From Gammaproteobacteria bacterium (GTDB taxonomy: Bacteria; Pseudomonadota; Gammaproteobacteria; GCA-001735895): a DNA stretch of 64,000 nt. Under the pieces are notes generated by a model that ran no database searches, was not told the DNA's origin, and saw only the letters and a list, made by a program, of their open reading frames with translations. The stretch spans positions 43,585-107,584 of the forward strand of contig JBNLGQ010000029.1 in the NCBI GenBank assembly GCA_050306135.1, in the 5' to 3' direction. A program made the position numbers and the translations under genes. Shown piece by piece: positions 3,165 to 54,558 of this stretch. How positions within the stretch are numbered: position 1 is the stretch's first letter; each line of letters opens with the position of its first letter.

Positions 3165-4376
3165 ATGCGCAAGGTGTTATATCTGATTCTAATGATGTGC
3201 CTGACTTTTCCGCTTATTGCAACGGCAAAAACGGCACCGGTAGTCAGAGAGCGCATACTGACGCAATTACAGAAGTCTCAAAAAATGATAGAGGCTGGAG
3301 AGTACAGCAAGTCTTTTGAATTGTTGAATGAACTGAGTGAAGCAGAATTAACTAACTATGAACACTCACAGGTTTACAAATTACTCGCCTACCAGTTTTT
3401 TCAGTCGAATGAATACAGTAAGGCAATACCTTACTACCAGAAAATTCTACAGCTTGAGGATTTGCCACAGTTCACAGTGGATGAATCGCTTTATAGTCTG
3501 AGCCAGCTATATTTCTCAGTGGAGGATTATGTTTCAGCTGAAAAAATATTAAGTCAGTGGTTTGAGCATAACCCTGATGCAGGTGTGCTGGCCTACGAAC
3601 TACAGGGACAGATTTATTATCAGCTCAAGCAGAAAGCACAGGCGATTAAATCATTAACGAAAGCCATAGAGTTAAATCAGCAAAACAATAAACCGCCACG
3701 CCAGAACTGGTTGCAAATGTTACAGGGGCTTTATTACGAATCAGGAGATATATCCAGCACCATTAAAACGGTAGAGCAATTAATCCACTATTACCCCAAA
3801 AAAGTTTACTGGTTACAGCTAGCCGGTCTGTATGGCGAGCAGGAGCAAATAGACAGGCAGCTGTATGTGATGGACGCAGCCTATACCGAGGGCTTGCTGA
3901 ACAGGGAAAGCGAGTTAAAAAATCTTGCCTATCTATATCTCGATCAGCAGGTGCCATATCAGGCAGCAAAAATTTTACAGAAGGGGCTTGATGCAAAACT
4001 GATAACGCCAACTGAAAAAAATCTGCAACTACTGGCCGATGCCTGGCGTATGGCAAAAGAAATCAAACCCTCGATTGAGGCCCTGGAACTGGCCGCAAAA
4101 AAGGCCACGCATGGCAATCTTTATGCTCAGCTGGCACAGTTATATTTGCAGGACGAACAATATAAACAGGCTGAATCAGCCGCAAAACAGGCAATAGAAA
4201 AAGGGAGCTTAAAACAAATCGGTCAGCTGTATAACACACTTGGCATAGCCTTATTCAAACAGCAGAGATATGCATCCGCTAAGCAGGCGTTCACAAAAGC
4301 TAAACAGGATCCTGAAGCGAAAAAGACAGCTCTGCAATGGATAAAATATGTGGAAAGTTTTGAAGGCAAAGGCTAG
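3165..4376 (+). CDS. TPR-repeat protein (TtpD-like, TonB2-system associated)
   Basis: 403 aa with a signal peptide and repeated TPR-like helix pairs ('YYQKILQLED', 'AIKSLTKAIELNQ', 'AKQAFTKAKQ'). It occupies the position of ttpD downstream of tonB2. Confidence 0.6.
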   Translation: MRKVLYLILMMCLTFPLIATAKTAPVVRERILTQLQKSQKMIEAGEYSKSFELLNELSEAELTNYEHSQVYKLLAYQFFQSNEYSKAIPYYQKILQLEDLPQFTVDESLYSLSQLYFSVEDYVSAEKILSQWFEHNPDAGVLAYELQGQIYYQLKQKAQAIKSLTKAIELNQQNNKPPRQNWLQMLQGLYYESGDISSTIKTVEQLIHYYPKKVYWLQLAGLYGEQEQIDRQLYVMDAAYTEGLLNRESELKNLAYLYLDQQVPYQAAKILQKGLDAKLITPTEKNLQLLADAWRMAKEIKPSIEALELAAKKATHGNLYAQLAQLYLQDEQYKQAESAAKQAIEKGSLKQIGQLYNTLGIALFKQQRYASAKQAFTKAKQDPEAKKTALQWIKYVESFEGKG

Positions 4377-4393
4377 GTATTAGCCTGAAAAAA

Positions 4394-4580
4394 TAACCAC
4401 GAAGCACACGAAGAGCACGAAGAGAATATACAAATAAATAACTTAGGGTCTGTTAAGAGGTGTAAAAAGGCTCTTGTATGTGCAATCTTGAAATAAAAAA
4501 TAACCACGAAGCACACGAAGAGCACGAAGGAAATGAACATATATAAAAAGTCTTCGTGAACTTCGTGTGCTTCGTGGTTA
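4394..4580. repeat. Cluster of 9-bp-periodic CACGAAG repeat units: one direct copy (4394-4422) and a palindromic pair (4501-4530 forward, 4552-4580 reverse) separated by a 21-nt AT-rich loop
   Basis: 'TAACCACGAAGCACACGAAGAGCACGAAG' occurs twice, and its reverse complement 'CTTCGTGAACTTCGTGTGCTTCGTGGTTA' once. It lies between the convergent TPR gene and ppnN. The same family recurs at 20281-20690 and 54316-54397. Confidence 0.8.
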
Positions 4581-4628
4581 AATATTAATCCTAAGCTATT
4601 CCTAATTCCTACAGAATCAGCGCCCAAA

Positions 4629-5960
4629 TTAGACTGAACTTCTGATCTGGTAACAGGGCTCGTAGTGGGTTCCTGGTAGCTTCATGCGCTGTTGTTCAAC
4701 GAATGCCTGTAGCAGCGCATCCACTGGTTGCATGATCTCGGGATCACCGCTGAGTTCAAATTTGCCTTTTTGCTTAATTTCTTCAATACCCTGCTGTTTG
4801 ATGTTACCGGACACCACACCTGAAAAGGCACAGCGCAGGTTAGCTGCGAGTAGGTGCTGTTGCTGATTCTTGGTCAGTGTCAGACTGCGCATGTTTTCAT
4901 GGGTTGGGATAAATGGCCTCTGAAATGATTCATCTACTTTCAGGTACCAGTTGTAGTAATAGGCGTCACCCTGCAGCTTACGAAACTCGCGTACCTGTTG
5001 TACGCCTTTCTTCATTTCCAGTGCAACACGAGCTGGATCCTCGATGATGATCTTGTAACGCTGCTGTGCTTCCATTCCCAGTGTATCCAGGATGAATCGG
5101 TTGACCTGATCAAAGTAATCTGTAGCAGTTTTTGGGCCGGTCAGGATTAACGGGAAGGGCACTTCTTTATTATCCGGGTGAGCAAGTATACCCAGCAGAT
5201 AAAGGATTTCTTCCATGGTACCCGCCCCACCAGGGAAAACGACAAAGCCATGCCCTAAACGAACGAAAGCTTCCAGACGTTTTTCGATATCCGGCATGAT
5301 GACCAGTTTGTTGACGATCGGGTTGGGTGATTCGGCAGCGATAATGCCAGGTTCAGTCATGCCGATGTAGCGTCCCAGCTCGCTGCGTTGTTTGGCATGA
5401 CCAATAGTCGCGCCTTTCATGGGGCCTTTCATTGCACCTGGTCCGCAACCCGTGCAGATATCAAGGTTGCGCAGGCCCATCTGGTAGCCAACCTCCTTGG
5501 TATAGTCGTATTCCTCTGGACTGATAGAATGCCCGCCCCAGCAGACCACAAGATTGGGTTCGAGCTCAGGGATAAATAGATCGGCATTACGCAGAATATG
5601 AAAGATAGCATTAGTGACATCTTCAGATTGATTCAGGTCGAATCGCTGTGAATGAACAACACTGTGGTGAGCGTAGAGTACATCGCGTAACACGGAGAAC
5701 AGGTGCTCGTTGATACCGGTAATCAATTCGCCATCGACGAATGCAATGGCAGGGGCATTTTTTAATGAAAGCTTAATACCGCGCTGCTTCTGGATCACCT
5801 CTACAGAAAAATCCGGGTAACGCTTGATCAGTTCCCGACCATCGTCGAGAGGGCTGCCACAGTTCAATACGGCAAGGGAGCAATTACGGAATACTTCAGC
5901 CAGTTCACCTTCACTGGCATCCAGGATATGACTGACCTCAAACTGGGACAGGCTTTGCAT
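4629..5960 (-). CDS. ppnN: Pyrimidine/purine nucleotide 5'-monophosphate nucleosidase PpnN (YgdH family, LOG-like domain)
   Basis: There are strong blocks shared with E. coli PpnN as I recall it: 'FRNCSLAVLN', 'VVCWGGHSI', 'NICTGCGPGAMKGPMKGA', 'IGMTEPGIIAAE', 'IMPDIEKRLEAFVR', LOG motif 'FPGGAGTMEE', 'LILTGPK', and 'MKLPG'. The start is set at the internal Met (MQSLSQFEV...) that aligns with the E. coli N-terminus. The ORF is open up to 6074. Confidence 0.8.
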   Translation of the reverse strand: MQSLSQFEVSHILDASEGELAEVFRNCSLAVLNCGSPLDDGRELIKRYPDFSVEVIQKQRGIKLSLKNAPAIAFVDGELITGINEHLFSVLRDVLYAHHSVVHSQRFDLNQSEDVTNAIFHILRNADLFIPELEPNLVVCWGGHSISPEEYDYTKEVGYQMGLRNLDICTGCGPGAMKGPMKGATIGHAKQRSELGRYIGMTEPGIIAAESPNPIVNKLVIMPDIEKRLEAFVRLGHGFVVFPGGAGTMEEILYLLGILAHPDNKEVPFPLILTGPKTATDYFDQVNRFILDTLGMEAQQRYKIIIEDPARVALEMKKGVQQVREFRKLQGDAYYYNWYLKVDESFQRPFIPTHENMRSLTLTKNQQQHLLAANLRCAFSGVVSGNIKQQGIEEIKQKGKFELSGDPEIMQPVDALLQAFVEQQRMKLPGTHYEPCYQIRSSV

Positions 5961-6485
5961 CTGCCCTCTGGGCGAGATCAATGCATCGATAACTTCAAAT
6001 TTCAACGGATCAATTCCATTAGCTTGTATAAAGAGGCAAGTATAACCGATCAGGTTATTGCTTATACAATCCAATACATGCTAACTGGAATTCAAAAAAT
6101 ATCACTTATTCAGCATCAATGAGAAGGAATAATATTGAATGAATAGTGCAATAAGTGGAAAACTCGGGTCAGAGAGGAATAGCACTTAAATAAGGCTAAC
6201 ATGCAGTTAATGCAAGGAAGGTAATCTCTTTGGCAGTGGGAATTCGTCAAGGTAAGAGATTCCATCCTCAGGCCCATAGAGAGGTCATATTTGTGCCTCT
6301 CATGCCGCGTGAAGTTTAGCCCTTCTGCCCTTTAGAATTTTTGTAGAAATAAGCAAGATCAGTCTTAATGGAGTCATCCTTGGGTATTTTTGTAGGAATA
6401 TTCTTACCTTTTTAATAGCTCTGTAATTTCATCAAATAACCTATAATAGCTCGCGTTTTACTAACATTTTTAACATAGTAGTTTT

Positions 6486-8495
6486 ATGAAAGCATTAAGG
6501 GTACTCACCTGTTTATTATTTGGTTTGTCAATATTATTCAATTATGCTAATGCAGGTATTAAGCTTAATAAGAAGGACGTCCATATAGGTATTACAAAAA
6601 AACCGCTATGGGTTTCGAATATATCAATCGATTATACAAAACCTGATTCGCTCAGATCTCCCAAGCATTACCACCTTTATGATCAACAATTTAATCTTAT
6701 AGATGGATACCAGAAGTATTTCCGTCATGTATACACACTCAATGATGCTTCTTCAATTGAATCGGCTGCAGATATTAAAATTGAGTTTGATCCATTTTAT
6801 GAAAAACTTGAAATTCACAAGATAAATGTTATTCGCAGTGGGAATACCATTAGCAAATTAAACAAAAAGGATATCCAGATTATCAGTTCAGAAGCTGAAA
6901 AAGATAATAATATTTATTCTGGAACGGTCACGGCATTACTTCTTCTGCCAGATATTCGTAAAGGAGATACCATCGATTATAGTTATACTATTAAGGGTAT
7001 GAATCCTGTTTATCTTAATAAGTTTTCAAAATTTATTAGGCTTGGTTGGCAAATAAATATTGATCATATTCATGTGTCAATCAATACGCCAAAAAATATA
7101 GAACTAAAAATTAACAAATTTGATATAGATGAAGATGTTAAAAGACAGGAGTTTGAAAATAAAAAAGTAATAGAGTTGGATATGTATAATTCTATAGCAT
7201 ATGAAAATGAGGGCAATCTTCCATCGTGGTTTATACCGTACCCCTATTTACAGGTATCCCAGTATGCCACCTGGTCTGATGTATCAGTCTGGGCAAACAG
7301 TCTTTTTGATGATGAAGAAACTCATTCAGCATCTTTAACAAATTATATAAGTAAGCTAATGGCGATGGATAAAACATCTGCTATAAACCATGCAATCAAT
7401 TTCGTCCAGAATAATATACGTTATTTAAGTTTAAATATTGCCGAAAACTCGCACAAGGCTCATTCTGTAAATGAAGTTTTTGAAAACAGATATGGTGACT
7501 GTAAGGATAAGGCTCAATTGTTATCAGTTATTTTGCGTACTATAGGTGTTAGAGCATATCCTGCATTAGTAAGCTCTAAAAATTCTATATTTATGAATCA
7601 TGCATTAGCTGGTCATGATTTATTTGATCATGCAATTGTGATGATGAAGATTGGTAATGAAGTGACATGGGTTGACCCGACGATTACCTATCAAGGTTAT
7701 AATTATCGAGAAAAATATCATCCTGATTATGGACTAGCATTGGTGGTTAACCATGAGTACTTTTCGGAATTGACCAGAATGAATAAGCCGAGTCCGACAT
7801 CTGTTTTTATTGAAGAGCAAATTGTTACAGCTGACTATTCCTCACCTGCTGACTGGGAAATTAAAACCATATTTATCGGAAGTGAAGCCGAAGATATGCG
7901 CTACCGATTAGCTCGTGATGGGATAAAAAAAACCGAAAAAAAATATCTGAACTATTACGCAGAGAAATATCCTGAAATAGAAAAATCTTCAGATCTTAAA
8001 ATTGAAGATGATACTGAAAAGAATCAAATAACGATCAAGGAGTTCTACTCGGTACCAGGATTTTGGGATCAATTAAATACAGGGGAGGTTGGTTTTAACC
8101 TGGATGCCGATTATATGGGGGATTATGTTAAATTGCCAAAAACGGTTAAAAGATTTCAGCCTTTGAAAATCTATCACCCTGTTTCTATAAATCATAAGGT
8201 GACTTTGCTACTTCCTGAGCATCTTGACTGGTCGAAGGTGGCTTCAACAGAAAATATTGATGACGATTATGTTGTTTTTAAATCAATTACCTCTTTTGAT
8301 AATCGTAGATTTATATTTGAGAACAGCTATAAATCTAAAAATGGTTTTATTAGTGCAGATAAAATTCCTGATCATTTGGAATTGCTCAAAAAAATTCGTA
8401 GCAATTTAAGGTTTGCGGGGAGCATCTATGATATAGAAAATTACGCTGGTAAAAAGGCAGTGGAAGATTTGTTAAATGCAATCACAGATCTTTAA
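6486..8495 (+). CDS. Secreted transglutaminase-like cysteine protease-fold protein with an N-terminal DUF3857-like domain
   Basis: 669 aa with a signal peptide. It carries a transglutaminase-like Cys-His-Asp core: 'YGDCKDKAQLL' (Cys), 'LFDHAIVMM' (His), and 'WVDPT' (Asp). The nucleotide composition is markedly AT-rich compared with its neighbours. Confidence 0.65.
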   Translation: MKALRVLTCLLFGLSILFNYANAGIKLNKKDVHIGITKKPLWVSNISIDYTKPDSLRSPKHYHLYDQQFNLIDGYQKYFRHVYTLNDASSIESAADIKIEFDPFYEKLEIHKINVIRSGNTISKLNKKDIQIISSEAEKDNNIYSGTVTALLLLPDIRKGDTIDYSYTIKGMNPVYLNKFSKFIRLGWQINIDHIHVSINTPKNIELKINKFDIDEDVKRQEFENKKVIELDMYNSIAYENEGNLPSWFIPYPYLQVSQYATWSDVSVWANSLFDDEETHSASLTNYISKLMAMDKTSAINHAINFVQNNIRYLSLNIAENSHKAHSVNEVFENRYGDCKDKAQLLSVILRTIGVRAYPALVSSKNSIFMNHALAGHDLFDHAIVMMKIGNEVTWVDPTITYQGYNYREKYHPDYGLALVVNHEYFSELTRMNKPSPTSVFIEEQIVTADYSSPADWEIKTIFIGSEAEDMRYRLARDGIKKTEKKYLNYYAEKYPEIEKSSDLKIEDDTEKNQITIKEFYSVPGFWDQLNTGEVGFNLDADYMGDYVKLPKTVKRFQPLKIYHPVSINHKVTLLLPEHLDWSKVASTENIDDDYVVFKSITSFDNRRFIFENSYKSKNGFISADKIPDHLELLKKIRSNLRFAGSIYDIENYAGKKAVEDLLNAITDL

Positions 8496-8516
8496 ATAAA
8501 CATTTTTATTATAAAT

Positions 8517-9701
8517 ATGAAAACCATATCCAAGGCATTTTCTCTATTCGCTATTCTATTATTTTTAGCTGGTTGTAATTCTTTGAAAGTTGATGAAAAC
8601 GTTGGCAGTCAACAATTGCAACCCTCTTTAAAAGAACTATCCATTTATAATTTCAATAAAAAATTTGAAAATGCCTTAAATAATAAAAATTTTGATTTCA
8701 TAAAAAGGATCATCAGTTCTGAATCAATAATAAAATACCTGGAGAAAAAATATTTGCCTGAGTATGCTGACGTTGCCTTTCTTTTTGGTGGAAAAGATAA
8801 ATTTGAAAAACTAATAGATTTTGGTCATATATTTAAATCAGGTATTGTTAAGGTTTTAGATAATAATCCAAATAACAACAACTGGACATATTTGTATTCT
8901 CAGTATAGCAAGGAAAGCGAGCTTACGATTAGCTTGTATAGGATCATTATAGAAGGAAGGTTGCAGTATATAAAATTTTACTTTGATGAAGATAGAAAAC
9001 TCGTTGATCTTCATGTGGCAGGTTATAAATATAGTGATTTTGATCTAATGGTTAATATGATGGCATTGCCATTAAGATCCGGCAAAAAGAGTAATAATTA
9101 CTACGATATAATACGAAGATTCACTGAAAATACCAAAAACTCAGACATAGAAAAATTAGAATCTGATTTCAAAACTTTAGACGATGAGTTAAAAAACTCT
9201 GATGTATTTTACGATTTCTTACTGAAGTTACAAGTGAGCTTACAGAAAGAGCCAGCAAAAAAATTTATTACCCTTATGCAGGAACATATGAAATATCAAA
9301 GCTTTTTGTTGTACCCGTACTTAGAGAATGTTGAAATCACTGAAGAAAGGATACTGTATATAGAAAACTTATTGAATTTCACCAATAATGACAGTAACGC
9401 TCTCTCCGATTTATCTTTGACTTATGCCCAAACAGGTGACTTTATAACAGCCTTAAGACTAGGAAAAAAGGCGCTTATGAAGAGTCCCGAAGATGAGGAG
9501 ATATTTTGGGATTTTCTTGAAGTTACTATTTTGTCTGGACGTTTTGATTTAAGCACTAAGATCCTTCGTGTTCTAAACGAAAAATTCCAAATAAAACTTA
9601 ACGAAGAAAATCTTGCGGCGCTAGATCAATACCCAAAATTCATCAACTCTCAATCATACAAGGTATGGCTCACCGAAAATAAGATATCCTCAGGTCAATA
9701 A
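8517..9701 (+). CDS. Lipoprotein with C-terminal TPR-like repeats (function unknown)
   Basis: 394 aa with the lipobox 'LLFLAGC'. It is Asn/Lys-rich and low-GC. The C-terminal region is TPR-like ('LSLTYAQTGDFITALRLGKKALMKSPEDEE'). It lies 21 nt downstream of the transglutaminase-like gene. Confidence 0.5.
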   Translation: MKTISKAFSLFAILLFLAGCNSLKVDENVGSQQLQPSLKELSIYNFNKKFENALNNKNFDFIKRIISSESIIKYLEKKYLPEYADVAFLFGGKDKFEKLIDFGHIFKSGIVKVLDNNPNNNNWTYLYSQYSKESELTISLYRIIIEGRLQYIKFYFDEDRKLVDLHVAGYKYSDFDLMVNMMALPLRSGKKSNNYYDIIRRFTENTKNSDIEKLESDFKTLDDELKNSDVFYDFLLKLQVSLQKEPAKKFITLMQEHMKYQSFLLYPYLENVEITEERILYIENLLNFTNNDSNALSDLSLTYAQTGDFITALRLGKKALMKSPEDEEIFWDFLEVTILSGRFDLSTKILRVLNEKFQIKLNEENLAALDQYPKFINSQSYKVWLTENKISSGQ

Positions 9702-9905
9702 TAGGTGTGCAATAATTTTACTTGATAAGGTAGAAAGTATAATCATACCACTTTTTCAACATTTAAACGGATCTCGCACCCCGTACTATTGCAATATATA
9801 GAAAGCTTGAATTTAATATGTGAAATCTATTCGAGAATACATCGTTTACTATCTTCTTATACTAGTGAAAACCGTACGAATTTTTTAATATTAGATCTGA
9901 CAACT

Positions 9906-20267: not shown

Positions 20268-20280
20268 GGTTGCTATGTTT

Positions 20281-20690
20281 TAACCACGAAGGGCACGAAG
20301 AACACGAAGGGTGTTAGTGTGGGGGATATCTTTGTGGATTTGGCGTGCTTTGCGGTTGGGAGTTTCTTTTTGCAGCATTATTTAACCACAGAGTGCACGG
20401 AGGACACTGAGAATGATTTTTTAAGATAGCTATTAACCACGAAGGGCACGAAGAACACGAAGGATATTAGTCAGGGGTTAATCTTCGTGCACTTCGTGGT
20501 TGGGATTTTTTGCTTTAGTTGAACCAAAGAACAGTGCTTCAAAGAAAAGCACAAAAAACTCTGTGCTCTCTGTGGTTTAAAAATAATCCTTACGGCCCGC
20601 ACAACCAAACCGCAGCGTCAGCAAGCCACCATAGGAAACATCAAGAACAACAAAAAACCTTCGTGTTCTTCGTGTGCTTCGTGGTTAATC
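20281..20690. repeat. Dense cluster of CACGAAG-type 9-bp-periodic repeat units, at least six copies in both orientations including CACAGAG/CACTGAG variants
   Basis: Forward copies lie at 20281-20310, 20384-20414 (variant 'CCACAGAGTGCACGGAGGACACTGAG') and 20434-20463. Reverse copies lie at 20483-20501, 20559-20578 (variant 'CTCTGTGCTCTCTGTGG') and 20659-20689. The cluster fills the 427-nt gap between the convergent lhr and mocR genes. Confidence 0.8.
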
Positions 20691-33025: not shown

Positions 33026-33985
33026 ATGGAACAACTCACTGACCTCAAAGCCATCCTTCATTCCAAACGGGCAAATATCTACTATCTGGAAAAATGCCGG
33101 GTGATGCAAAAAGACGGGCGAGTTCTTTATCTCACCGAAGCCAAAAACGAAAACCAGTACTGGAACATACCCATAGCCAACACCACCTGCATCCTGCTAG
33201 GGACAGGAACTTCAATAACTCAGGCAGCAATGAGAATGCTGGCCTCAGCCGGAGTCATGGTCGGCTTCTGTGGGGGCGGTGGCACGCCTTTACTGATGGC
33301 TACCGAAATAGAATGGCTAAGCCCGCAAAGCGAATACCGGCCCACAGAATACCTACAGGGCTGGATGCAATTCTGGTTTAATGATGACAAACGATTGCAA
33401 GCAGCCAAACAATTTCAATTAGCTCGTATTGATTACCTGAACACACTCTGGAGTAAAGACCGCGATCTAAAGTCCGAAGGCTTTGCTAGTGACTACCCCT
33501 TTATCCAACAGGCGATAGAAAACTGTCAGGCCAAAATCAAAGTCGCACCAAAAGTCAGCCAACTGCTACAGGCCGAAGCAGAGTTCACCAAACAACTCTA
33601 CAAACATGCCGCACACAGTACAAAATATGGGGACTTCACGCGCGAGCGAGAATCTGTAGATACCGCTAATGCCTTTTTAAATCATGGCAATTACCTGGCC
33701 TACGGACTAGCCGCAACAACTTTATGGGTGCTGGGTATACCACATGGCTTCGCCGTAATGCATGGTAAAACGAGGCGTGGCGCACTGGTTTTCGACATAG
33801 CCGATCTCATCAAAGACGCCATCGTCCTGCCCTGGGCGTTTATTTGTGCCAAAGAAGGAGCCAGTGAACAGGAATTCCGTCAGCAATGCCTGCAGGCGTT
33901 TACCGACCATAAGGCTCTGGATTTTATGTTTGATCAGGTGAAGGCAGTAGCTCTCAAACAGGACTGGGTGGATATACGGTCATGA
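33026..33985 (+). CDS. cas1: CRISPR integrase Cas1, type I-F
   Basis: The match to P. aeruginosa Cas1 is very close: 'ILHSKRANIYYL', 'YWNIPIANTT', 'LLGTGTSITQAAMR', 'GVMVGFCGGGGTPL', 'LTPQSEYRPTEYLQ', 'NHGNYLAYGLAATTLWVLGIPHG', and 'LVFDIADLIKD'. Confidence 0.92.
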   Translation: MEQLTDLKAILHSKRANIYYLEKCRVMQKDGRVLYLTEAKNENQYWNIPIANTTCILLGTGTSITQAAMRMLASAGVMVGFCGGGGTPLLMATEIEWLSPQSEYRPTEYLQGWMQFWFNDDKRLQAAKQFQLARIDYLNTLWSKDRDLKSEGFASDYPFIQQAIENCQAKIKVAPKVSQLLQAEAEFTKQLYKHAAHSTKYGDFTRERESVDTANAFLNHGNYLAYGLAATTLWVLGIPHGFAVMHGKTRRGALVFDIADLIKDAIVLPWAFICAKEGASEQEFRQQCLQAFTDHKALDFMFDQVKAVALKQDWVDIRS

Positions 33986-36900
33986 TGGTGACCTTTGTAT
34001 CCCAATGCGAAAAGAAAGCACTCAATCGAACTCGCAGAGTGCTGGATGCTTTTGCTGATCGTATTGGTGATAACACCTGGCAGACCGTGATAACGCAAGA
34101 GGGGCTCCTTGCAGTAAAAAAACTACTTAGAAAAACCGCAACAAAAAATACCGCAGTGAGCTGTCACTGGATACGCTCGCGATCCCGCAGTGAATTGATT
34201 TGGGTGGTGGGAAATAGAAGTAGGTTTAATGAGCAAGGTTATGTTCCGGTGAATCTAACTGATAGTCATATCGAACAATTTCAGGACAAGGTACAGTGGC
34301 AAATGTTGCCAGTTATTCAATACGCAGCAAGCATTTCAGGTTTGTTTCATGACTTCGGCAAAGCCAACAAACTGTTTCAGAAAAAAATTGACCCTCATGA
34401 CAAAGACTCATCAATATTTGAACCCTATCGGCATGAGTGGATTTCTTTACGCCTTTTTCAGGCGTTCGTAGGGGATAAAACTGATGCAGAATGGTTGGAC
34501 GAGTTGGCAGATATTAATCCTGATATCGTAGTAGCCTGCTTCCGTGATGGACTAGAAGGTGGCGTGGATAAAGAAAATAACCCATTTCTAAATCTACCTG
34601 CATTTGCGCGTATCGTAGCCTGGATTATTCTGTCACATCACCGCTTACCGTTATCGCCATCATGGCAAGACAATGAGAGGCCAGCCAGATTCGGCGAAAT
34701 GCAATCATGGTTGGAAATTGACTTTGATGCCGTCTGGAACTCCTACCGCTGTAAGGATGCAGACCAAAAAGAACGCATTGAAGACAATTGGCACTTTGCC
34801 GATAAATCACTGCCTTACTTCAGCCAACATTGGAGAGCCAAAGCCTGCACCACAGCGTCTGAGGCTAAGCAAAATCTCAGTTTATGGCTCAACGATAGTG
34901 CAAAAGACTGGATACTTGACCACTTGTTTGTCAGTCATTTGGCTCGCTTGTCAATGATGCTGGCGGATCACCATTATTCCTCTCGACCCAGAGTCACACA
35001 TAAATGGCGCAACCCCAATTACAAGGTATATGCCAACTCAGACCGATTTACAAAACAACTCAAGCAACAACTTGATGAACACTTAATTGGGGTTTCTTAC
35101 AATGCCGAGCGCATTGTGCGCAAGTTATCTAAGCTGAAAGATAGTCTGGAAAAACTCGGTGATAATGAATTTTTAAGTGAGCCGGTTTCGAAGGAGAATA
35201 AAGATGCTTTTGGTTGGCAAGATGCCGCCATAGAGGTTGTAAGAAAATGTGCCGCAGAAACAAGGGGAAAAGGTTTCTTCGGCATCAATATGGCATCCAC
35301 TGGTAAAGGCAAAACCCTCGCTAACGCCAAAATCATGTATGCACTGGGTGAAAATACAGGTGGTGTTCGTTTCAGCGTGGCACTAGGCTTGCGCACACTA
35401 ACCTTGCAAACAGGTCGCGAATTCCGCAAAGAATTAGATCTCAACGAAGAGCAGCTTGCGTTGTTAGTAGGTGGTACAGCGGTTAAACAATTATATGAAA
35501 ACAGCCAAAACCAACAACAAGGCAAGAGTGATCCTGAAGATATGGGAAGTGAATCAGGGCAGGAATATTTGCCAGATGAGCTAAAAGTGAATTACAGCGG
35601 GACTGTAACAAAGCATGCGCTCAGTGAGTGGACGAGAGAAAATCCGCGTATGGACAACATGCTATGCGCACCTGTGCTGGTAAGCACAATCGATCACCTT
35701 ATCCCCGCAACGGAAGGTGTTAGGGGAGGTAAACAAATCGCCCCGATGTTGCGCCTGTTAACCTCCGATCTTGTTTTGGACGAGCCGGATGATTTTGGCT
35801 TGGAGGATTTGCCAGCCTTATGTCGTTTGGTGCATTGGGCGGGAATGCTGGGCAGTCGTGTTTTGCTCTCTACTGCGACCATGCCGCCTGCTCTAGCCTA
35901 CGCATTATTTCAGGCATATAAAGCAGGCTGGGCACAGTATGCCAAAGCCAATCTGGCAGATTGGAATGGTGAAATTTGTTGTGCCTGGTTTGATGAGTTT
36001 AAGCGTAATGCAAGAACAACGAATGTATCTCAATTCAAAAATAGCGAAGCTAAGGGTTTGGCAGCCAAGGCGCTATTTATCAATGCACATAAATCCTTTG
36101 TGTCAGACCGGCTGGCTGAGCTAAGTAAAAACGACATTGCAAAGCGTCAGGGGGAAATCATCTACCCTGATGCACCCTTATCTCCAAGTCAAGCCATCGC
36201 CAAACTATGTCACAAAAAAATAGTTGAGCTGCACCATCAACACCATGTGCGACGAGAAGATGGTAAAACGGTGTCTATTGGTTTGATTCGTATGGCCAAC
36301 ATCAACCCATTGGTGGCAGTAGCACAGAAAATGCTGCAAATGGATGCACACCCAAACACCCGGATTCACTATTGCGTGTATCACAGCCGCTATCCCTTAG
36401 CATTACGCTCTTTCATTGAAAACCGTTTAGATACAGTGCTTTCTCGAAAGAAAGTGGATGAGTTCTGGCAACGCGAGGAAATCACCAGGCCGCTATCACA
36501 GTATCCTGACAGTAATCATCACATTTTTGTAGTCTTAGCTTCACCGGTTGCCGAGGTGGGGCGAGATCATGATTACGACTGGGCGATAGTTGAGCCAAGC
36601 TCGATGCGTTCGATAATTCAGTTGGCGGGGAGGATTTTGCGCCACCGCGAATTAGAAAAGCCGCTGAAGGCTTCCAATGTATTGATACTCAACAAAAACA
36701 CCAAAGTGCTGCAAAATGAGCAAGTTTGTTATTACCGACCAGGCTTTGAAAGCATTGGTTTAAGATTGTCACCACATGAACTGTTAGACACAAAACAGTT
36801 TGCGCAGATTGATGCATCTCCCCGTATTGAAGAGCCTGACTTAAATGGAATAGAAGTGACAGAAAAGGGGAAGTCTCCCTATATCAAATACTCCAATCTA

Positions 36901-37359
36901 AACGAGTTAGAACATGCTGCTCTTAAAAAACAGTTATTCACAGGAACTAAAAAAGCAAAGTTGTGGTGGTCAGAACAACCCCATTGGTGTGGCGAAATGC
37001 AAAAACAACAACGCTTTCGTGAGTCAAAGAAGGATGAGGCTTTTTACCTGTATGTGGATGACGAGTACAAAGAACCTAACTGGCGTTGGCTTAACGAAAA
37101 TGCGCGACCCGCCAAGTTTGGTGAGGTATCGAGTATCAACATAAAAAAAGTACCGGAATTTGGTAAAGGATTAAACAGTGGCTTCTGGTTTGAGATGGAT
37201 ACAAAGTCGATTTATAGCCAGCTAGCAGATGATTTTGGTGTTGAGTTACCTGAGGTTAGCTGCCGTTACGGCGAAGTACGAATAGTTGAATATGAAAATA
37301 ATGATGCTGAATATCTTTGGCATGAAGCTTTAGGGTTATTTCAGGAGGTTAATATCTAA
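33982..37359 (+). CDS. cas3: Cas2-Cas3 fusion (Cas2 domain + HD nuclease + SF2 helicase), type I-F
   Basis: It has an N-terminal Cas2-like segment ('VSQCEKKALNRTRRVLDAFADRIGDNTWQT...AVSCHWIRSRSRSELIWVVG'), an HD motif ('LFHDFGKANKLFQ'), Walker A ('MASTGKGKTLANAKI') and DExD ('LVLDEPDDF'). It overlaps cas1 by 4 nt. Confidence 0.92.
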   Translation: MMVTFVSQCEKKALNRTRRVLDAFADRIGDNTWQTVITQEGLLAVKKLLRKTATKNTAVSCHWIRSRSRSELIWVVGNRSRFNEQGYVPVNLTDSHIEQFQDKVQWQMLPVIQYAASISGLFHDFGKANKLFQKKIDPHDKDSSIFEPYRHEWISLRLFQAFVGDKTDAEWLDELADINPDIVVACFRDGLEGGVDKENNPFLNLPAFARIVAWIILSHHRLPLSPSWQDNERPARFGEMQSWLEIDFDAVWNSYRCKDADQKERIEDNWHFADKSLPYFSQHWRAKACTTASEAKQNLSLWLNDSAKDWILDHLFVSHLARLSMMLADHHYSSRPRVTHKWRNPNYKVYANSDRFTKQLKQQLDEHLIGVSYNAERIVRKLSKLKDSLEKLGDNEFLSEPVSKENKDAFGWQDAAIEVVRKCAAETRGKGFFGINMASTGKGKTLANAKIMYALGENTGGVRFSVALGLRTLTLQTGREFRKELDLNEEQLALLVGGTAVKQLYENSQNQQQGKSDPEDMGSESGQEYLPDELKVNYSGTVTKHALSEWTRENPRMDNMLCAPVLVSTIDHLIPATEGVRGGKQIAPMLRLLTSDLVLDEPDDFGLEDLPALCRLVHWAGMLGSRVLLSTATMPPALAYALFQAYKAGWAQYAKANLADWNGEICCAWFDEFKRNARTTNVSQFKNSEAKGLAAKALFINAHKSFVSDRLAELSKNDIAKRQGEIIYPDAPLSPSQAIAKLCHKKIVELHHQHHVRREDGKTVSIGLIRMANINPLVAVAQKMLQMDAHPNTRIHYCVYHSRYPLALRSFIENRLDTVLSRKKVDEFWQREEITRPLSQYPDSNHHIFVVLASPVAEVGRDHDYDWAIVEPSSMRSIIQLAGRILRHRELEKPLKASNVLILNKNTKVLQNEQVCYYRPGFESIGLRLSPHELLDTKQFAQIDASPRIEEPDLNGIEVTEKGKSPYIKYSNLNELEHAALKKQLFTGTKKAKLWWSEQPHWCGEMQKQQRFRESKKDEAFYLYVDDEYKEPNWRWLNENARPAKFGEVSSINIKKVPEFGKGLNSGFWFEMDTKSIYSQLADDFGVELPEVSCRYGEVRIVEYENNDAEYLWHEALGLFQEVNI

Positions 37360-38894
37360 TGAGCACAGGAAAAACAATGCATGATGCAATCCAGCATTTT
37401 ATTTTAGAGCGGAAAGCGAAGAAAGAAGAAGCTCTCCTTGCAACTAAGCTTGAGAAAGATAAGGATGGCGGGCTAAACAAAATTTTAATTAAAACCATCA
37501 AGTCTACGAAAAAAACAACTAATGATGATTTAAACAGCATTGCAACCAGAAAAAAGTCCAAAGACGAGACTTCACTAAATTTTCATGCCCAAAAATATCA
37601 TGATCTAATCACCTTGGCTGAAGGCAATCAAATAGATCTAGCGGAGTACAAAGAGACATATTTATTACAAAAACAAAAGGTGGATGATTCTCATCAGTTT
37701 GCTACGTGGTTGGATGATAATTGTAGATATGCAGAAGGTGCTTCGGTTGCAACACATGTGTCTAAGCTAACCCATTCATCCAATAAAGCATCTTGTTTTT
37801 TTGATCAAATTCATGACAAAAAATCAGGGTATGTTACAACGTCAATGATAAGCAAGCCGGTTGTCGATGGAGCTTACGATAATGCCAAGTATTCTCCAGT
37901 CGTCTCCCTGCTATTAGTTGAAAATGAAGGGCGATTTTTTTACGAAGATATCATCGAAGGTAAATATGATGGATTGCTAGGTTTTGAGGAGAACGATGAC
38001 CAAATAAATACATGGAGAACCGAGCTAAAAAAGTCAATTGATAAACCAAGCAAAGCAACTGACGGGTTATCTAAGCAAGTCTATTTTCCTTTGAAAAAAA
38101 TCTCCGTAAATTCCAACGATTGGCATTTACTCTCCGTGCTTGTTTCCTCTTCGATGGCACATTCGATCTTCAATATGACTGCATCAAAAGTGTTCAACGA
38201 CCATAATAAGTCTTTGAGGGATAAATATAGAGCTAAGTCTCTATACAGCCCCGAGACACTGATCAGCCACCCGAAAACAGCCACATTGATGGTGACTCAA
38301 AGCTCTCATCAAAATACTTCCCAACTGAATGGTGCACGCAGTGGTAGATTGATATTGACTTCATCCCAGCCACCCACATGGCAACGCCAAGTAACCCCCC
38401 CAATCTATCAAAACTCATGGTTTCGCTACGGCATTCCATACAGCACTATAAAAGAAGATATTAAATACTTACGTGAATTTTTATTACGTAATGACAGGTT
38501 AGAGTTGAGTACTCGTGACCCGAAAAAACATAAGTGGCTGGAAAGTTGGGGAGAGCAAATTCTTGATGAGGTGATGTATCAGGCCAACATCATTCAAGAG
38601 CTACCAGCAGGCTGGTCGGCAGTGGAGGACATCAAGCTCAAAAAAGCACATCAATATTTTCTTGATCCCTACCGAGATGATGTAGGCTTTCAGGGAGAGC
38701 GAGAGGCCACTGATTGGGAACCGGAAGTCTGCGCTGATTTTTCGCGCTGGTTGAATAATCATCTGAAAGGAAAAGACAAGGCCTTTTCCCCGCAACCAGA
38801 GCATAGTAAATTGTGGAAAAGTCTAATGGCTGCGGCTCTACGTGAATTGAAAGATACACAAAAATTCTCCTTTGAGAAGGAGGTAAACGCATGA
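37359..38894 (+). CDS. csy1: Csy1 / Cas8f, large subunit of the type I-F Cascade
   Basis: Blocks are shared with P. aeruginosa Csy1: 'KQVYFPL', 'LTSSQPPTWQRQVTPPIYQNSWF' (compare 'LPSLPPNWQRQNV...SSVF'), and 'FSRWLNNHL'. At 511 aa it is about 75 aa longer at the N-terminus than the 434-aa reference. Its start overlaps the cas3 stop (TAATG). Confidence 0.85.
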   Translation: MSTGKTMHDAIQHFILERKAKKEEALLATKLEKDKDGGLNKILIKTIKSTKKTTNDDLNSIATRKKSKDETSLNFHAQKYHDLITLAEGNQIDLAEYKETYLLQKQKVDDSHQFATWLDDNCRYAEGASVATHVSKLTHSSNKASCFFDQIHDKKSGYVTTSMISKPVVDGAYDNAKYSPVVSLLLVENEGRFFYEDIIEGKYDGLLGFEENDDQINTWRTELKKSIDKPSKATDGLSKQVYFPLKKISVNSNDWHLLSVLVSSSMAHSIFNMTASKVFNDHNKSLRDKYRAKSLYSPETLISHPKTATLMVTQSSHQNTSQLNGARSGRLILTSSQPPTWQRQVTPPIYQNSWFRYGIPYSTIKEDIKYLREFLLRNDRLELSTRDPKKHKWLESWGEQILDEVMYQANIIQELPAGWSAVEDIKLKKAHQYFLDPYRDDVGFQGEREATDWEPEVCADFSRWLNNHLKGKDKAFSPQPEHSKLWKSLMAAALRELKDTQKFSFEKEVNA

Positions 38895-40108
38895 GCCAAT
38901 ACATCTTACTCAATCGTATTAGAGTGCAAAATGCCAATGCGATAGCAGGCTTTACCTGGGGGTTTCCTGCGATAACGCATTTTCTTGGCTTTACCCATAA
39001 CCTGTCACGCAAACTAAGCCGGTCTGACAACTATTCCGGTATCAGCCTGACTGGTTGTGCAGTGATTGCGCATGAGCATCATGTGCATACCTATGGTAAA
39101 TATGGTGATCGATTCACTCAGGTTAAATCTTCATATATCTCAACACCTAAATTTGAAAAAGGCGTAATGAAAACGCCATCAATTATCGAAGAAGCAAAAA
39201 TGAACATGACGGTCTCTCTACTCATCAAGGTGGTGGGACGAATGGGTAATGCGACCTGGGTCGAACAGTTTACTACTTGGATAGAAAAGCAAAGCCATAT
39301 CCAGCGTTTGGCAGGCGGTACGATTTTAGACATCGCCGACGTAAAACTGCTTGATACCCACGAAAGGCGAGATCGTTACCAGCTTAAAGGTAAATTGTTG
39401 CCGGGCTTTGTACTTATGGATCGATCCAGCAGTTTGAAAAGCCGCTATCAGGTGTTGCAGAAAGAAAACCCCAACGCCGAATTACTAGACGCATGGCTGG
39501 ATTTTTCTGCATTCAAACAACAGGCTCGCCCAAAATACGATCAGATTTCAAAGTATCTGGACAAAGGCATTAAACAGGATGCAGCGACCTATGCCAGCTT
39601 GCTACACGATTGGCAAAAACACCTTGAGCATGTGCCTTATCAACAAGACAGCATCCCTGATTCATTGAAAGAGCATTTTTCAACACTTGATGCTAAAAAA
39701 TACAAGGCCTTGTTAGCGCAGTGGCAGCAATATCTGGAACCTAATGAGAAAACACCAGCCGATTGGGAGCGACTACCAAAACCCGAAGCCAGAGGTTATT
39801 TAGTGCCGTTGATGGTGGGCTACAAAGCTATCACCCCCGTTTACGACAATGCTGAAATTGCTAATACCCGCGATAGCGAAACCCCCGTTTGCTTTGTCGA
39901 GGCAGTACACAGTATTGGTGAATGGAAAAGTGCCCACCGTTTGCGCACGGAGGCTGATTTTGCCGAGAGTATTTGGCGCTATGACGACTATCAGGAACAT
40001 TGGTATTTGTGCAAGCAAGATATAGCACTTGAGACAATGGATGAACCTAACGAAACAACCACTGAAGAAGCAGTGATTAGTACCGACGATGATTATGAAG
40101 ATGACTAA
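38891..40108 (+). CDS. csy2: Csy2 / Cas5f, with an internal insertion and a polyacidic C-terminal tail
   Basis: It matches Csy2 in 'RIRVQNANAIAGFTWGFPAITHFLGF', 'LLPGFVLMDR', 'GYLVPLMVGYKAITPVY', and 'NTRDSETPVCFVEAVHSIGEWKSAHRL'. It is about 405 aa against about 327 in PA14 and ends in 'TTEEAVISTDDDYEDD'. Confidence 0.85.
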   Translation: MSQYILLNRIRVQNANAIAGFTWGFPAITHFLGFTHNLSRKLSRSDNYSGISLTGCAVIAHEHHVHTYGKYGDRFTQVKSSYISTPKFEKGVMKTPSIIEEAKMNMTVSLLIKVVGRMGNATWVEQFTTWIEKQSHIQRLAGGTILDIADVKLLDTHERRDRYQLKGKLLPGFVLMDRSSSLKSRYQVLQKENPNAELLDAWLDFSAFKQQARPKYDQISKYLDKGIKQDAATYASLLHDWQKHLEHVPYQQDSIPDSLKEHFSTLDAKKYKALLAQWQQYLEPNEKTPADWERLPKPEARGYLVPLMVGYKAITPVYDNAEIANTRDSETPVCFVEAVHSIGEWKSAHRLRTEADFAESIWRYDDYQEHWYLCKQDIALETMDEPNETTTEEAVISTDDDYEDD

Positions 40109-40117
40109 GGAGAAAGA

Positions 40118-41111
40118 AATGACGACCAAAGCGAAAGAAATTGACCTACCCAGTATGTTGGCATTTGAGCGAAAGCTGGAAGTGTCTGATGGACTGATGT
40201 TTGCTGGTAATTGGAGCGACCTTGCCGAAGAAAATGCTTGGGAGGCTATTAAGGTTGTGCCGCGTAAAAACCGCTCAACGCAAAGTGCTGCTGGCATTAA
40301 GGATGAGGAAAAATCTAAGCCAAACCCTGTTTCGGCAGATAATGATGATGCAAACCTGCCATATGACAAAGATACTCTAAAAGTCAGTTTCACTCTGCGT
40401 ATGATTGGGGATTTGGGCACTCCGTTCGGCTGCAATGACCCTGAATTCGAGAAAGCAATTCACAGCAAGGTAACTGAGTTTAAAGAACAAGGATTGAAAG
40501 AACTGGCACACCGCTATGCACAGAATATTGCCAGCGGGCGTTTCTTATGGCGTAACCGCATCTGTGCTGAAGAATTGCTGATTCAGGTCAGAATTAATCA
40601 TGGTGAGGATCTCATCGAACTTAATGGTTACGACTTCGCGTTAAATGATTTTGCGGCTAGCCGTCAAGACAACAAATTAGTCCAACTAACAGAGGCTATT
40701 TACCAAGGCTTGGTGGGTACACAAGATTTTGTTTTGCTGGAGGTTGATGCCTTTGTTCGCCTGGGCGCTGGTCAGCATGTGTTTCCATCGCAAGAAATGA
40801 ACATGGGCGATAAGAAAAAAGTGCTTTTCAAACTGGGAAAAGATAATAACCAGGCCGCTATGCATAGTGTGAAGTTAGGGAATGCTATTCGCACTATTGA
40901 TGATTGGTATCGCGAGAATGCTGAATTTCCGATTGCGGTAGAGCCCTATGGCTCAGTTACTCAGCGTGGCGAAGCCTACAGAAAAAGCAAAACAGACTTG
41001 TACACATTAATGTTGGACTGGGTGAATGATAAGCCTGTTGCAGACGAACAAAAATGCTATGTGTTAGCAAACCTGATACGTGGTGGCGTTTTTGGTGGAA
41101 AAAGTGAATAG
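40118..41111 (+). CDS. csy3: Csy3 / Cas7f, Cascade backbone subunit
   Basis: It is near-collinear with PA14 Csy3: 'LAFERKLEVSDGLMFAGNW', 'TLKVSFTLRMIGDLGTPFGCNDPEF', 'LAHRYAQNIASGRFLWRNR', 'VLLEVDAFVRLGAGQHVFPSQEM', 'IAVEPYGSVTQRGEAYR', and 'ANLIRGGVFGG'. The start is set at ATG 40118 behind an AGGAGA RBS. Confidence 0.9.
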
Positions 41112-41119
41112 GATCTAAG

Positions 41120-41671
41120 ATGAATCACTATTTCGAAATCAAAATACTACCCGACCCGGAGATACTGGACACAGTTCTGATGAACGCGGTTTACACCAAA
41201 CTCCACAAAGCCTTATGTGATCTGAACTCGACCGGTATTGGCGTTAGCTTTCCCAATAGGCAGAAGACTCTTGGCAATACGGTGCGATTACATGGTTCTG
41301 ATAAAGACCTGGATGACTTAATGAGGCTGAATTGGACAGGGGGTATGAGTGGATACTGCTCTATCAGTGATATCTTACCAGTACCTGATAATTCTAAGTT
41401 CCGCACCGTGTCGCGCAAGCAAACCACGATGAGTCAATCTAAGCTCAATCGGTTGTTAAAGCGTGGCTCCATCACTGAGGATGAGGTTAAAAATTACAAA
41501 GCGAAAATGTTTACCAAAGGTCTGGATAATCCTTATCTGGAATTACAAAGTGGTTCAAATGGACATAGACACCGTCGCTATATCGAATTTGGTGAGTTGT
41601 TAAACGAACCCGTCAGCGGCCAGTTTGACCAGTTCGGCCTATCCAAAACTGCGACTATCCCCTGGTTTTAA
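41120..41671 (+). CDS. csy4: Csy4 / Cas6f, pre-crRNA endoribonuclease
   Basis: 183 aa. 'MNHYFEIKILPDPE' parallels PA14 'MDHYLDIRLRPDPE'. 'IGVSFP' and the C-terminal 'YGLSKTATIPWF' (compare 'YGLSKGGFVPWF') are present. Confidence 0.9.
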   Translation: MNHYFEIKILPDPEILDTVLMNAVYTKLHKALCDLNSTGIGVSFPNRQKTLGNTVRLHGSDKDLDDLMRLNWTGGMSGYCSISDILPVPDNSKFRTVSRKQTTMSQSKLNRLLKRGSITEDEVKNYKAKMFTKGLDNPYLELQSGSNGHRHRRYIEFGELLNEPVSGQFDQFGLSKTATIPWF

Positions 41672-54315: not shown

Positions 54316-54397
54316 GGTTTAAGCACAGAGGACACTGAGAGCACAGAGAATATATTATTTGATATCTTCTTCGTGGCCTTCGTGAGCTTCGTGGTTA
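54316..54397. repeat. CACAGAG/CACGAAG 9-bp-periodic repeat pair (variant forward 54316-54348, canonical reverse 54369-54397) in the divergent lipid-operon/phnC promoter region
   Basis: The forward unit is 'GGTTTAAGCACAGAGGACACTGAGAGCACAGAG'. It is followed by 'CTTCGTGGCCTTCGTGAGCTTCGTGGTTA'. Confidence 0.75.
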
Positions 54398-54558
54398 TCC
54401 TGTTTTTTTCGTTCCCATGCTCTGAGATGGAATGCGTATGAACTGGCGTGGCAATGTGACTTTTCTTTTAGATTCTGTAACAAAAATTTAATAATTCCAT
54501 AACATTTTCGACATATTTAAAGGCTAAAGTGTGCCGCATTAAATTTTCGAGAAGTGTA

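Follow-up and report, generated by a model that had tools for sequence, protein, structure and literature searches.

The window analysed here, a 64,000-nucleotide (64-kb) stretch of contig JBNLGQ010000029.1 from a gammaproteobacterium, carries at three intergenic loci repeat arms in which copies of the heptamer CACNRAG follow a short T(T)AACC tag. These loci are shown to belong to a family whose longer members carry, between identical arms, the gene of a GxxExxY nuclease, and we consider it probable that the three loci are copies, in miniature and without an open reading frame (ORF), of a palindromic GxxExxY/PDDEXK_3 cassette that is widespread, and that some of these copies are nested or decayed. 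As delimited in this study, the arm of the cassette starts with an outer tag TT(C/A/T)ACC, followed by two to five C(A/G)CNRAG heptamers with one or two free, mostly purine bases between them. The full-length cassette measures about 440-610 bp and encodes a GxxExxY protein of about 125 aa in its loop, while the miniature form measures 60-200 bp and has a short, unrelated loop. The family is found in many bacterial phyla, in some archaea and in phage contigs, so that the repeats, which the original prediction from the letters of the window alone had called a previously unrecognised family, are no novelty at local or genus level. The link of the arms to the protein family PF13366 appears to be undescribed.

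Heptamer arms and their partner gene

A heptamer repeat family at three loci had been proposed for the window, and its existence is borne out by the counts. CACGAAG occurs 25 times, compared to 5.4 +/- 2.2 expected copies, and the triple unit CACNRAGnnCACNRAGnnCACNRAG with exact 9-nt spacing occurs nine times, against none in 100 shuffles. A relaxed scan confined the arrays to the three named loci, and Tandem Repeats Finder reported no comparable 9-nt array family elsewhere in the window, just two isolated low-scoring arrays. In total, 13 arms were identified, with CACNRAG heptamers at a 9-nt period and two or three heptamers per arm after the T(T)AACC tag. Eleven of them fully fit the tag TT(C/A/T)ACC followed by at least two C(A/G)CNRAG heptamers at 8-9 nt; the two exceptions are an arm with a diverged tag (TTTAAG) and one with degenerate heptamers.

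A genome collection with one genome per species was scanned with the pattern AACCACNRAGNNCACNRAGNNCACNRAG, and at least 120 stretches matched. These came from Planctomycetota, Acidobacteriota, Verrucomicrobiota, Chloroflexota, Cyanobacteria, Bacillota, Spirochaetota and Bacteroidota, as well as from several proteobacterial classes and two metagenome-assembled genomes (MAGs) of methanogens. Arms at the 9-nt period were likewise found in at least 120 stretches of IMG/VR viral contigs. By a random-sequence estimate about two matches would be expected by chance in the genome collection, which is a poor null because a permuted 9-nt control still matched 61 viral stretches; all of these were same-strand tandem runs without +/- pairs, many of them from giant-virus MAG contigs. 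Among cultured bacteria, BLAST of plasmid records with a CACAGAG arm as query revealed the arm in Pseudoalteromonas, Gemmatirosa, Bacteroides, Nostoc, Calothrix and Anabaena, and in Gemmatirosa it occurs at 24 and 16 places on two megaplasmids. A BLAST of plasmid records with the CACGAAG element gave no match. On the Pseudoalteromonas shioyasakiensis megaplasmid CP076682 (about 439.2-439.9 kb; L500 20005-20720), tandemly duplicated copies of a CACAGAG-type element occupy one intergenic region adjoining dnd/dpt phosphorothioation genes, with no further arrays in the surrounding 40 kb.

The sequence had not been recognised as a named element, and our searches agree with this. At gathering thresholds CRISPR repeats are the only Rfam matches in the window, and the E-value mode returned generic sub-threshold miRNA-hairpin noise. 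The literature, searched by arm sequence and by descriptors, yielded no description of the element, the arm strings matching primers only. One of these, the Bacteroides fragilis primer BF2782 ON-Rev (PMC3090145), terminates in CTCTGTGTTCTCTGTGGTG, which is a reverse arm; the element therefore adjoins the invertible promoter region studied in that paper, which makes no remark on it.

The first lead to a partner gene was a contig of Bacteroides finegoldii, on which a forward and a reverse arm bracket the gene of a 124-aa "GxxExxY protein"; within the same 25 kb, three gene-less copies share the unusual arm CACAGAG-GA-CGCAGAG with the full-length copy. Clustering of the ORFs around the 120 genome loci gave nothing specific, returning ABC transporters and two-component systems only. 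PDDEXK_3 was among the few Pfam families seen more than once in 88 small neighbouring ORFs, in which DinB families recur too, and both GxxExxY homologues among these 120 loci, which had been selected by motif, have an array within about 100 nt. A sample of 80 metagenomic GxxExxY loci was then retrieved by protein similarity alone, as the best tblastn hits to a Bacteroides-anchored alignment. Strict CACNRAG arrays were present within 200 nt at 38 of these 80 loci, with 22 genes bracketed by a forward and a reverse arm. With a relaxed unit, which admits CGC heptamer variants noticed by eye, 50 of the 80 genes are bracketed on both sides, 21 are accompanied on one side and 9 on neither. The bracketed full element has a median length of 506 nt, its forward arm beginning about 67 nt before the GxxExxY gene and its reverse arm ending about 52 nt after it, and the outer tags at the GxxExxY loci are TTCACC (31), TTAACC (14), TTTACC (7) and CTCACC (6).

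Over all loci analysed, element lengths are bimodal, with copies of 60-200 nt lacking an ORF and copies of 400-550 nt containing one, and 42 of 61 inner ORFs are GxxExxY-like in this sample, which is enriched by the choice of loci. The arms of the window (TAACC or TTAACC with three CACGAAG at 9 nt) are the same as those flanking the GxxExxY gene in such loci as L511, L522 and L553. A GxxExxY gene together with miniature copies in one genome was found in B. finegoldii and in the MAG loci L022 and L102 only.

The partner protein, of about 125 aa, is listed as TIGR04256 "GxxExxY protein" in NCBIfam and as PF13366 PDDEXK_3 in Pfam. Its structure model (predicted local distance difference test score, pLDDT, 94.9) consists of a minimal PD-(D/E)XK core, and the protein is predicted to be a minimal PD-(D/E)XK nuclease. 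The nearest solved folds, all of them distant, are Cas4, lambda exonuclease, RecE, Bax1 and tRNA splicing endonuclease, and no solved structure was found to be related to the protein in sequence. The only published statements found on the family class its function as unknown and give "Prokaryota & Viruses, multiple transfers" for its distribution (PMC3424549), which parallels that of the arms. The family is very large, as at least 7990 proteins, among the 8000 word-sharing candidates scored, had E <= 1e-10.

Across the family, 71 arm pairs run forward-reverse with outward-facing tags, and only 3 are ordered the other way round. The same order is seen in the window pairs 4501/4580, 20433/20503, 20382/20579, 20280/20359 (or 20280/20688) and 54318/54398. 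The loops between paired arms vary from 12 to about 400 nt, and those of different copies are unrelated, even inside one genome. Roughly 70% of the strict genome arms have an inverted partner and 30% are solo, while about 80% of the arms on phage contigs are solo. Nesting is frequent, the inner and the outer pair each being matched in heptamer type, as in the window element 20433-20503 inside 20382-20579. No target-site duplication was detected, as direct repeats were not in excess for k = 2-5 at offsets 0-15, and a piggyBac-like TTAA target duplication was looked for and not found. Of 66 pairs, 29 have a palindromic base adjoining the AACC tag, and only 12 a directly repeated one.

The spacer dinucleotides are mostly purines, and their complementarity between arms is at chance level (20 of 99 compared to 13.3 expected; at the nucleotide level 72 of 198 compared to 69.9), whereas the heptamer types of the two arms agree in 120 of 170 cases compared to 45.5 expected. 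In mixed elements the heptamer F_i matches R_i no better than R_j (44% vs 47%), and no register-specific covariation was observed. Since types match, spacers are not complementary and register has no effect, the conserved unit appears to be the heptamer and not the base pair, and this heptamer-level conservation points to recognition of the units. An 8-nt period, with single-base spacers, was found in 107 viral stretches, about as common as the 9-nt period (at least 120), and a 10-nt period, with three-base spacers, in 6 viral stretches only. The 9-nt phasing, part of the original description, is therefore incidental and not defining. The related idea of an array of recognition sites fared better in part: the conserved heptamers and the non-complementary spacers agree with it, but a fixed phasing read by a host regulator is disfavoured by the coexistence of 8-nt and 9-nt periods.

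Possible mobility, genomic position and competing explanations

A selfish cassette is suggested because exact units are conserved without covariation of the stem, because an element of this kind would agree with the orientation rule, with the nesting and with the missing target duplication, and because arms and protein have parallel distributions across phyla. In the mechanism we propose, the encoded nuclease would recognise the heptamer arrays as its sites, and gene-less copies would depend on nuclease supplied in trans, as MITEs, the miniature transposable elements with inverted repeats, depend on their parent element. From these sequence patterns we infer that the GxxExxY nuclease may mobilise the arms, and a conceivable route, one without any resulting duplication, would be the cutting of a cruciform or hairpin after its extrusion. 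Once transcribed, the arms could pair into a long bulged stem just past stop codons, which may form a 3'-end barrier or, by analogy with the intervening sequences (IVSs) of 23S rRNA, a putative RNase III-type processing site, with effects like those of repetitive extragenic palindromic (REP) sequences. In its strongest form the proposal is a tentative one: the arrays could be both binding and cutting sites of the GxxExxY nuclease, and the family a new class of PD-(D/E)XK-driven selfish element which causes no target-site duplication, spreads perhaps via cruciform or hairpin cutting, and spans bacteria, archaea and phages, with the miniatures of the window as its non-autonomous offspring. If the arrays were indeed sites of this nuclease, this would be the first functional assignment for the PF13366 family. 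Tying PF13366/TIGR04256 to an easily recognised DNA element provides in any case a concrete hypothesis that can be tested in vitro.

Several observations weigh against the cassette interpretation. No GxxExxY gene was found in the 64-kb window by tblastn, and the syntenic DNA of relatives at 85% protein identity is free of arrays over 13-21 kb; these relatives are too diverged for an empty-site alignment, and no clean empty site was recovered for any window locus. Unrelated loops in the miniature copies of one genome are unusual for copy-and-paste MITEs, and neither a hairpin nor a two-ended element is by itself enough to explain solo arms. In Bacteroides, different species have the GxxExxY gene at the same locus, so that any mobility must be slow. 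Moreover, the 80 loci are a biased sample of PF13366, and the nuclease could be mere cargo of the arms.

The position of the arrays relative to genes bears on the alternatives. Sites fall into 61 tandem, 19 convergent and 9 divergent gaps, compared to 414, 125 and 109 background gaps, respectively; divergent regions are thus depleted, with 9 of 89 sites against 17% of gaps and 23% of intergenic length. A same-strand stop codon lies at -16 to -4 nt of the first heptamer in 83 of 181 viral and 29 of 138 genome arrays, compared to 17 and about 5 in the opposite-strand control, and in 33 viral arrays this stop codon is the TAA of the tag itself. The arms of phage contigs occupy gene junctions that are conserved, and in some cases they are translated as part of a gene. 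Among phages with 96-98% identity in the flanking protein, an array may be present or absent at one orthologous tail-gene junction (L258-L325), the alternatives being a minimal TAACCATG or runs of CTTAAAA, CTGAAAA or CACAGAG at 9 nt; further arrays at the same junction are built from GTCGAGG, CAGCCTT, GACTATTA and other units of 7-9 nt. This junction is a hypervariable boundary of periodic repeats.

The arms lack T on one strand and have no stop codon in any of the six frames. Three phage contigs (L207, L222 and L227) have the array inside the 5' coding region of a gene, where it is read as L-T-T-E-D-T-E-x-T-E and precedes a KKR motif and a hydrophobic helix. The idea of a coding repeat (T-E/K-x), which arose from the ACN wobble and from some phage N-termini, was rejected: arrays inside ORFs occur in all frames without preference, and a coding repeat is incompatible with the 8-nt period. 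In B. finegoldii NZ_OY725952.1 (L501 8731-9846), the annotated start of a "zinc ribbon domain-containing protein" spans a forward (8749) and a reverse (8889) arm; since the arms are open in every frame, the true start probably lies further downstream. This is an example of a wider annotation problem, as short ORFs and gene starts that extend over arms are likely artefacts.

A first alternative, which we regard as unlikely, holds that the arms are host-selected RNA structures and not mobile DNA: the bulged hairpin after a stop codon would serve as a barrier at the transcript 3' end, as a terminator or as an RNase III site, and the GxxExxY gene would be just one possible occupant of an insulated loop. 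The very stable folds, the clustering of same-strand stop codons just before the first heptamer and the depletion in divergent regions all speak for it, as do a weak bias of G.U-compatible mismatches towards the sense strand (55 vs 37), a compensatory change inside the loop stem of two orthologous copies (L072/L081) and the precedent of the 23S rRNA IVS, which is cut by RNase III (PMC4990558). However, a plain stem needs no exact heptamers, yet these are conserved across phyla, and the spacers are neither complementary nor subject to register-specific covariation. Phage contigs are dominated by solo arms, and in tandem gene contexts the solo arms of genomes are not biased in orientation (11 vs 9). 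A simple terminator scan left the main hairpins, whose loops are about 20 nt long, uncalled, and the terminator-like role originally suggested for the two convergent loci stays putative. Tandem-repeat expansion in place at gene boundaries, made palindromic by template switching, would do without any dedicated trans-acting factor, CACNRAG being spread by recombination and phages. This improbable explanation leaves the outward tag, the 71:3 orientation rule and the tight link to one protein family unaccounted for, and slippage would homogenise the spacers too, yet these differ while the heptamers stay exact. It draws on the many different 7-9 nt arrays at the same tail-gene junction of related phages, on unit numbers that differ between close strains, and on the T-less strand, without stops in any frame, of arrays that are sometimes read as coding; the pervasive tandem repeats of Borg elements are a known parallel (PMC9879509).

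The heptamer as conserved unit and the occurrence of arms in both orientations and as solo copies would also agree with double-stranded-DNA binding sites for a host protein, either a repeat-recognising regulator or a nucleoid protein, for which phasing matters. We give little credence to this explanation, as the 8-nt and 9-nt periods are both common and hence no helical phasing is fixed, most sites lie downstream of genes and not in promoters, and no regulator gene recurs beside the arms. A REP/REPIN family maintained by a REP-associated tyrosine transposase (RAYT), that is a Y1 HUH transposase, has been largely refuted and is very improbable. It shares with the arms the extragenic palindromic repeats, the conserved outer tag, the lack of target duplication and the presence in many phyla known for GTAG and CGTC REPs (PMC3733652), and a Y1_Tnp gene does occupy the same intergenic slot in the relative L125. 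That Y1_Tnp family, however, has its own, different flanking repeats, with no heptamer arrays in 11 loci, and neither the window nor the 120 genome loci contain a Y1_Tnp gene; where a RAYT had been suggested as a partner to look for, the partner found is the GxxExxY/PDDEXK_3 nuclease gene. The arms are moreover direct-repeat arrays and not small palindromes, and their tag is neither GTAG nor CGTC. The original prediction had set the repeats apart from classic REP and enterobacterial repetitive intergenic consensus (ERIC) sequences, and the tags, the direct-repeat arms and the missing RAYT link bear this out, also with regard to bacterial interspersed mosaic elements (BIMEs).

The Y1_Tnp (PF01797) family of 235-241 aa (L125 11311-12027; L127-L137, mostly at 4001-4717) is very conserved: thousands of its proteins share at least 70% identity, and most of them are encoded on 1-2 kb contigs. 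Its genes are flanked by their own inverted GGGTCAGACTC / GAGTCTGACCC motifs, and in L137 the gene is also preceded by tandem CACGAATAGGGGTCA units. The family looks like a separate REP/RAYT-type system.

The three loci of the window

Inverted pairs of arms had been expected to form imperfect hairpins of about 30 bp, and bulged hairpins of this size are indeed predicted at the first two loci, less clearly at the third. The convergent and divergent settings given at the time were also found to be correct: locus 1 lies between convergent genes for a tetratricopeptide repeat (TPR) protein of a TPR/TonB cluster and for PpnN, locus 2 between convergent genes for an Lhr helicase and a MocR/GntR regulator, and locus 3 between divergent genes for a class-III aminotransferase and an ABC ATPase. 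At three of the stop codons of the four convergent genes, an arm begins 6-17 nt away. Runs of T come after 20503 (+ strand) and after 4501 and 4394 (- strand).

Locus 1 consists of a solo forward arm and a hairpin element. The solo arm (4394-4422, + strand), which starts 17 nt past the TPR stop codon, is made of TAACC and three CACGAAG at the 9-nt period, and no convincing folding partner was found for it (z-score against shuffled sequences, z, -1.3). The element 4501-4580 starts with a forward arm (4501-4529, + strand) identical to 4394-4422, including the A-rich 5' flank, followed by an AT-rich loop of 22 nt (4530-4551) unrelated to the loops of other copies, and by a reverse arm (4552-4580, - strand) of three CTTCGTG and GGTTA, located 48 nt from the convergent ppnN-like stop codon. 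The region 4493-4590 folds at -46.5 kcal/mol (z -12) on either strand. This element has three units per arm in the window and two in a 99%-identical strain (L126), in both arms. A contig from a public run breaks off within the first arm, in the way that dispersed repeats would be expected to interrupt assemblies. A strain-level indel lies right beside locus 1: relative to L126 (10810-11027), whose TPR protein is 99% identical to that of the window, the segment at about 6100-9900, encoding a DUF3857/transglutaminase-like protein (669 aa) and a 394-aa ORF without Pfam match, is missing from the L126 contig.

Locus 2 had been credited with at least six copies including CACAGAG and CACTGAG variants; the variants are present, and the precise count is seven arms, arranged as a nest. 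The outermost forward arm, F1 (20280-20309, + strand; TTAACC and three CACGAAG), starts 12 nt past the Lhr helicase stop codon. Its partner is a degenerate reverse arm (20330-20359, - strand) with the sequence CTTTGTG GA TTTGGCG TG CTTTGCG GTTGG, with which it folds at -29.6 (z -2.6), and the whole F1 element, including its loop, is a diverged copy of element 20433-20503. An older, heterogeneous element combines the forward arm 20382-20411 (+ strand; CACAGAG / CACGGAG / CACTGAG) with the reverse arm 20559-20579 (- strand; two CTCTGTG and GGTTTA), which matches it in type. Nested within the loop of this element is the CACGAAG element with forward arm 20433-20462 (+ strand) and reverse arm 20483-20503 (- strand; two CTTCGTG and GGTTGG, then TTTTTT); the region 20428-20512 folds at -33.9 (z -7.5). 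The last reverse arm, R4 (20659-20688, - strand; three CTTCGTG and GGTTAA), ends 6 nt before the stop codon of the convergent gene of MocR/GntR type. When the whole locus is folded, R4 and F1 are paired in the minimum-energy structure (-168 kcal/mol, z -9.8).

Locus 3 is a diverged arm pair. The forward arm (54318-54348, + strand), in the divergent intergenic region, has the diverged tag TTTAAG and the heptamers CACAGAG / CACTGAG / CACAGAG, and the reverse arm (54369-54398, - strand) consists of three CTTCGTG and GGTTAT, so that its heptamer type differs from that of its forward partner. The pair forms a weak hairpin (z -2.8).

Two further features of the window were recorded. An array of 45 CRISPR repeats (Rfam CRISPR-DR4; 28 nt, 60-nt period) lies at 41986-44653, and the six + strand ORFs upstream of it (33026-41671; 319, 1125, 511, 405, 340 and 183 aa) fit, judged by their sizes alone, a putative type I-F cas operon. 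ORF 47271-47972 contains a 177-nt tandem repeat (47361-47872; 2.9 copies, 85% identity), which probably belongs to the coding sequence.

Comparison with known systems

In Bacteroidota, Planctomycetes-Verrucomicrobia-Chlamydiae (PVC) bacteria, Acidobacteriota, Cyanobacteria, Proteobacteria and phage contigs, the element described here accounts for a class of hairpins between genes and of assembly breaks, and for odd "coding" repeats at the ends of genes. Another case of direct heptamer repeats that lie at gene boundaries in distant phyla are the TAACTGA repeats, reported in Beggiatoaceae, Cyanobacteria and Bacteroidetes, for which no transfer mechanism is known and an unidentified binding factor has been proposed (PMC4679880). 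The phage junctions studied here carry CTGAAAA and CTTAAAA runs similar to them. Unlike the arms, TAACTGA repeats are contiguous, mostly located just upstream of start codons, rarely inverted, and without a linked gene (PMC4679880). The attC sites of integrons were considered and rejected: only the AAC/GTT ends and the A/T-rich flanks agree with RYYYAAC ... GTTRRRY, a superficial likeness, and the copies are single sites between housekeeping genes, not a cassette array, with no recombinase gene recurring nearby.

MITEs resemble the window copies in that short gene-less copies share terminal inverted repeats with a longer gene-carrying form, and in their dispersed intergenic location, nested insertions and assembly breaks. 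Here, too, a longer form with the same ends as the miniatures exists, encoding a predicted PD-(D/E)XK nuclease. The cassette differs from MITEs by the absence of a target-site duplication, by a partner that is a 125-aa nuclease and not a DDE transposase, and by the internal sequence of its miniature copies, which is not conserved between copies. With REP, BIME and REPIN sequences the cassette has in common that it is extragenic and palindromic, carries a conserved outer tag, lacks a target duplication, occurs in several phyla, lies close to stop codons and is tied to a single small nuclease-type gene flanked by repeats (PMC3733652). Its tag, however, is TT(C/A)ACC, and not GTAG or CGTC beside an imperfect palindrome of 20-40 nt; its arm is a direct-repeat array and not a hairpin; and the linked gene is of the PD-(D/E)XK and not of the Y1 HUH type.

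The IVS of Coxiella burnetii 23S rRNA is about 430 nt long, with terminal repeats of about 28 bp and a small ORF (S23p), and is cut by RNase III (PMC4990558). Like the cassette, such IVSs, of about 430-500 nt, enclose a small ORF in a long stem made by their terminal inverted repeats of about 28 bp, have been described as selfish and horizontally spread, and exist in ORF-less forms (PMC4990558). In contrast, the cassette copies lie between protein-coding genes and not in helices 9, 25 or 45 of 23S rRNA, the window being without rRNA; their ORF encodes a PD-(D/E)XK nuclease and not the four-helix-bundle S23p; and their arms are periodic heptamer arrays. No S23p gene linked to arrays was found in 4.2 Mb of loci, in a weak test with a consensus as query. 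In kind, the element is a variation on the MITE, REP and IVS theme, offering a protein-gene counterpart to the intervening sequences of rRNA and a third tagged superfamily beside the GTAG and CGTC REPs.

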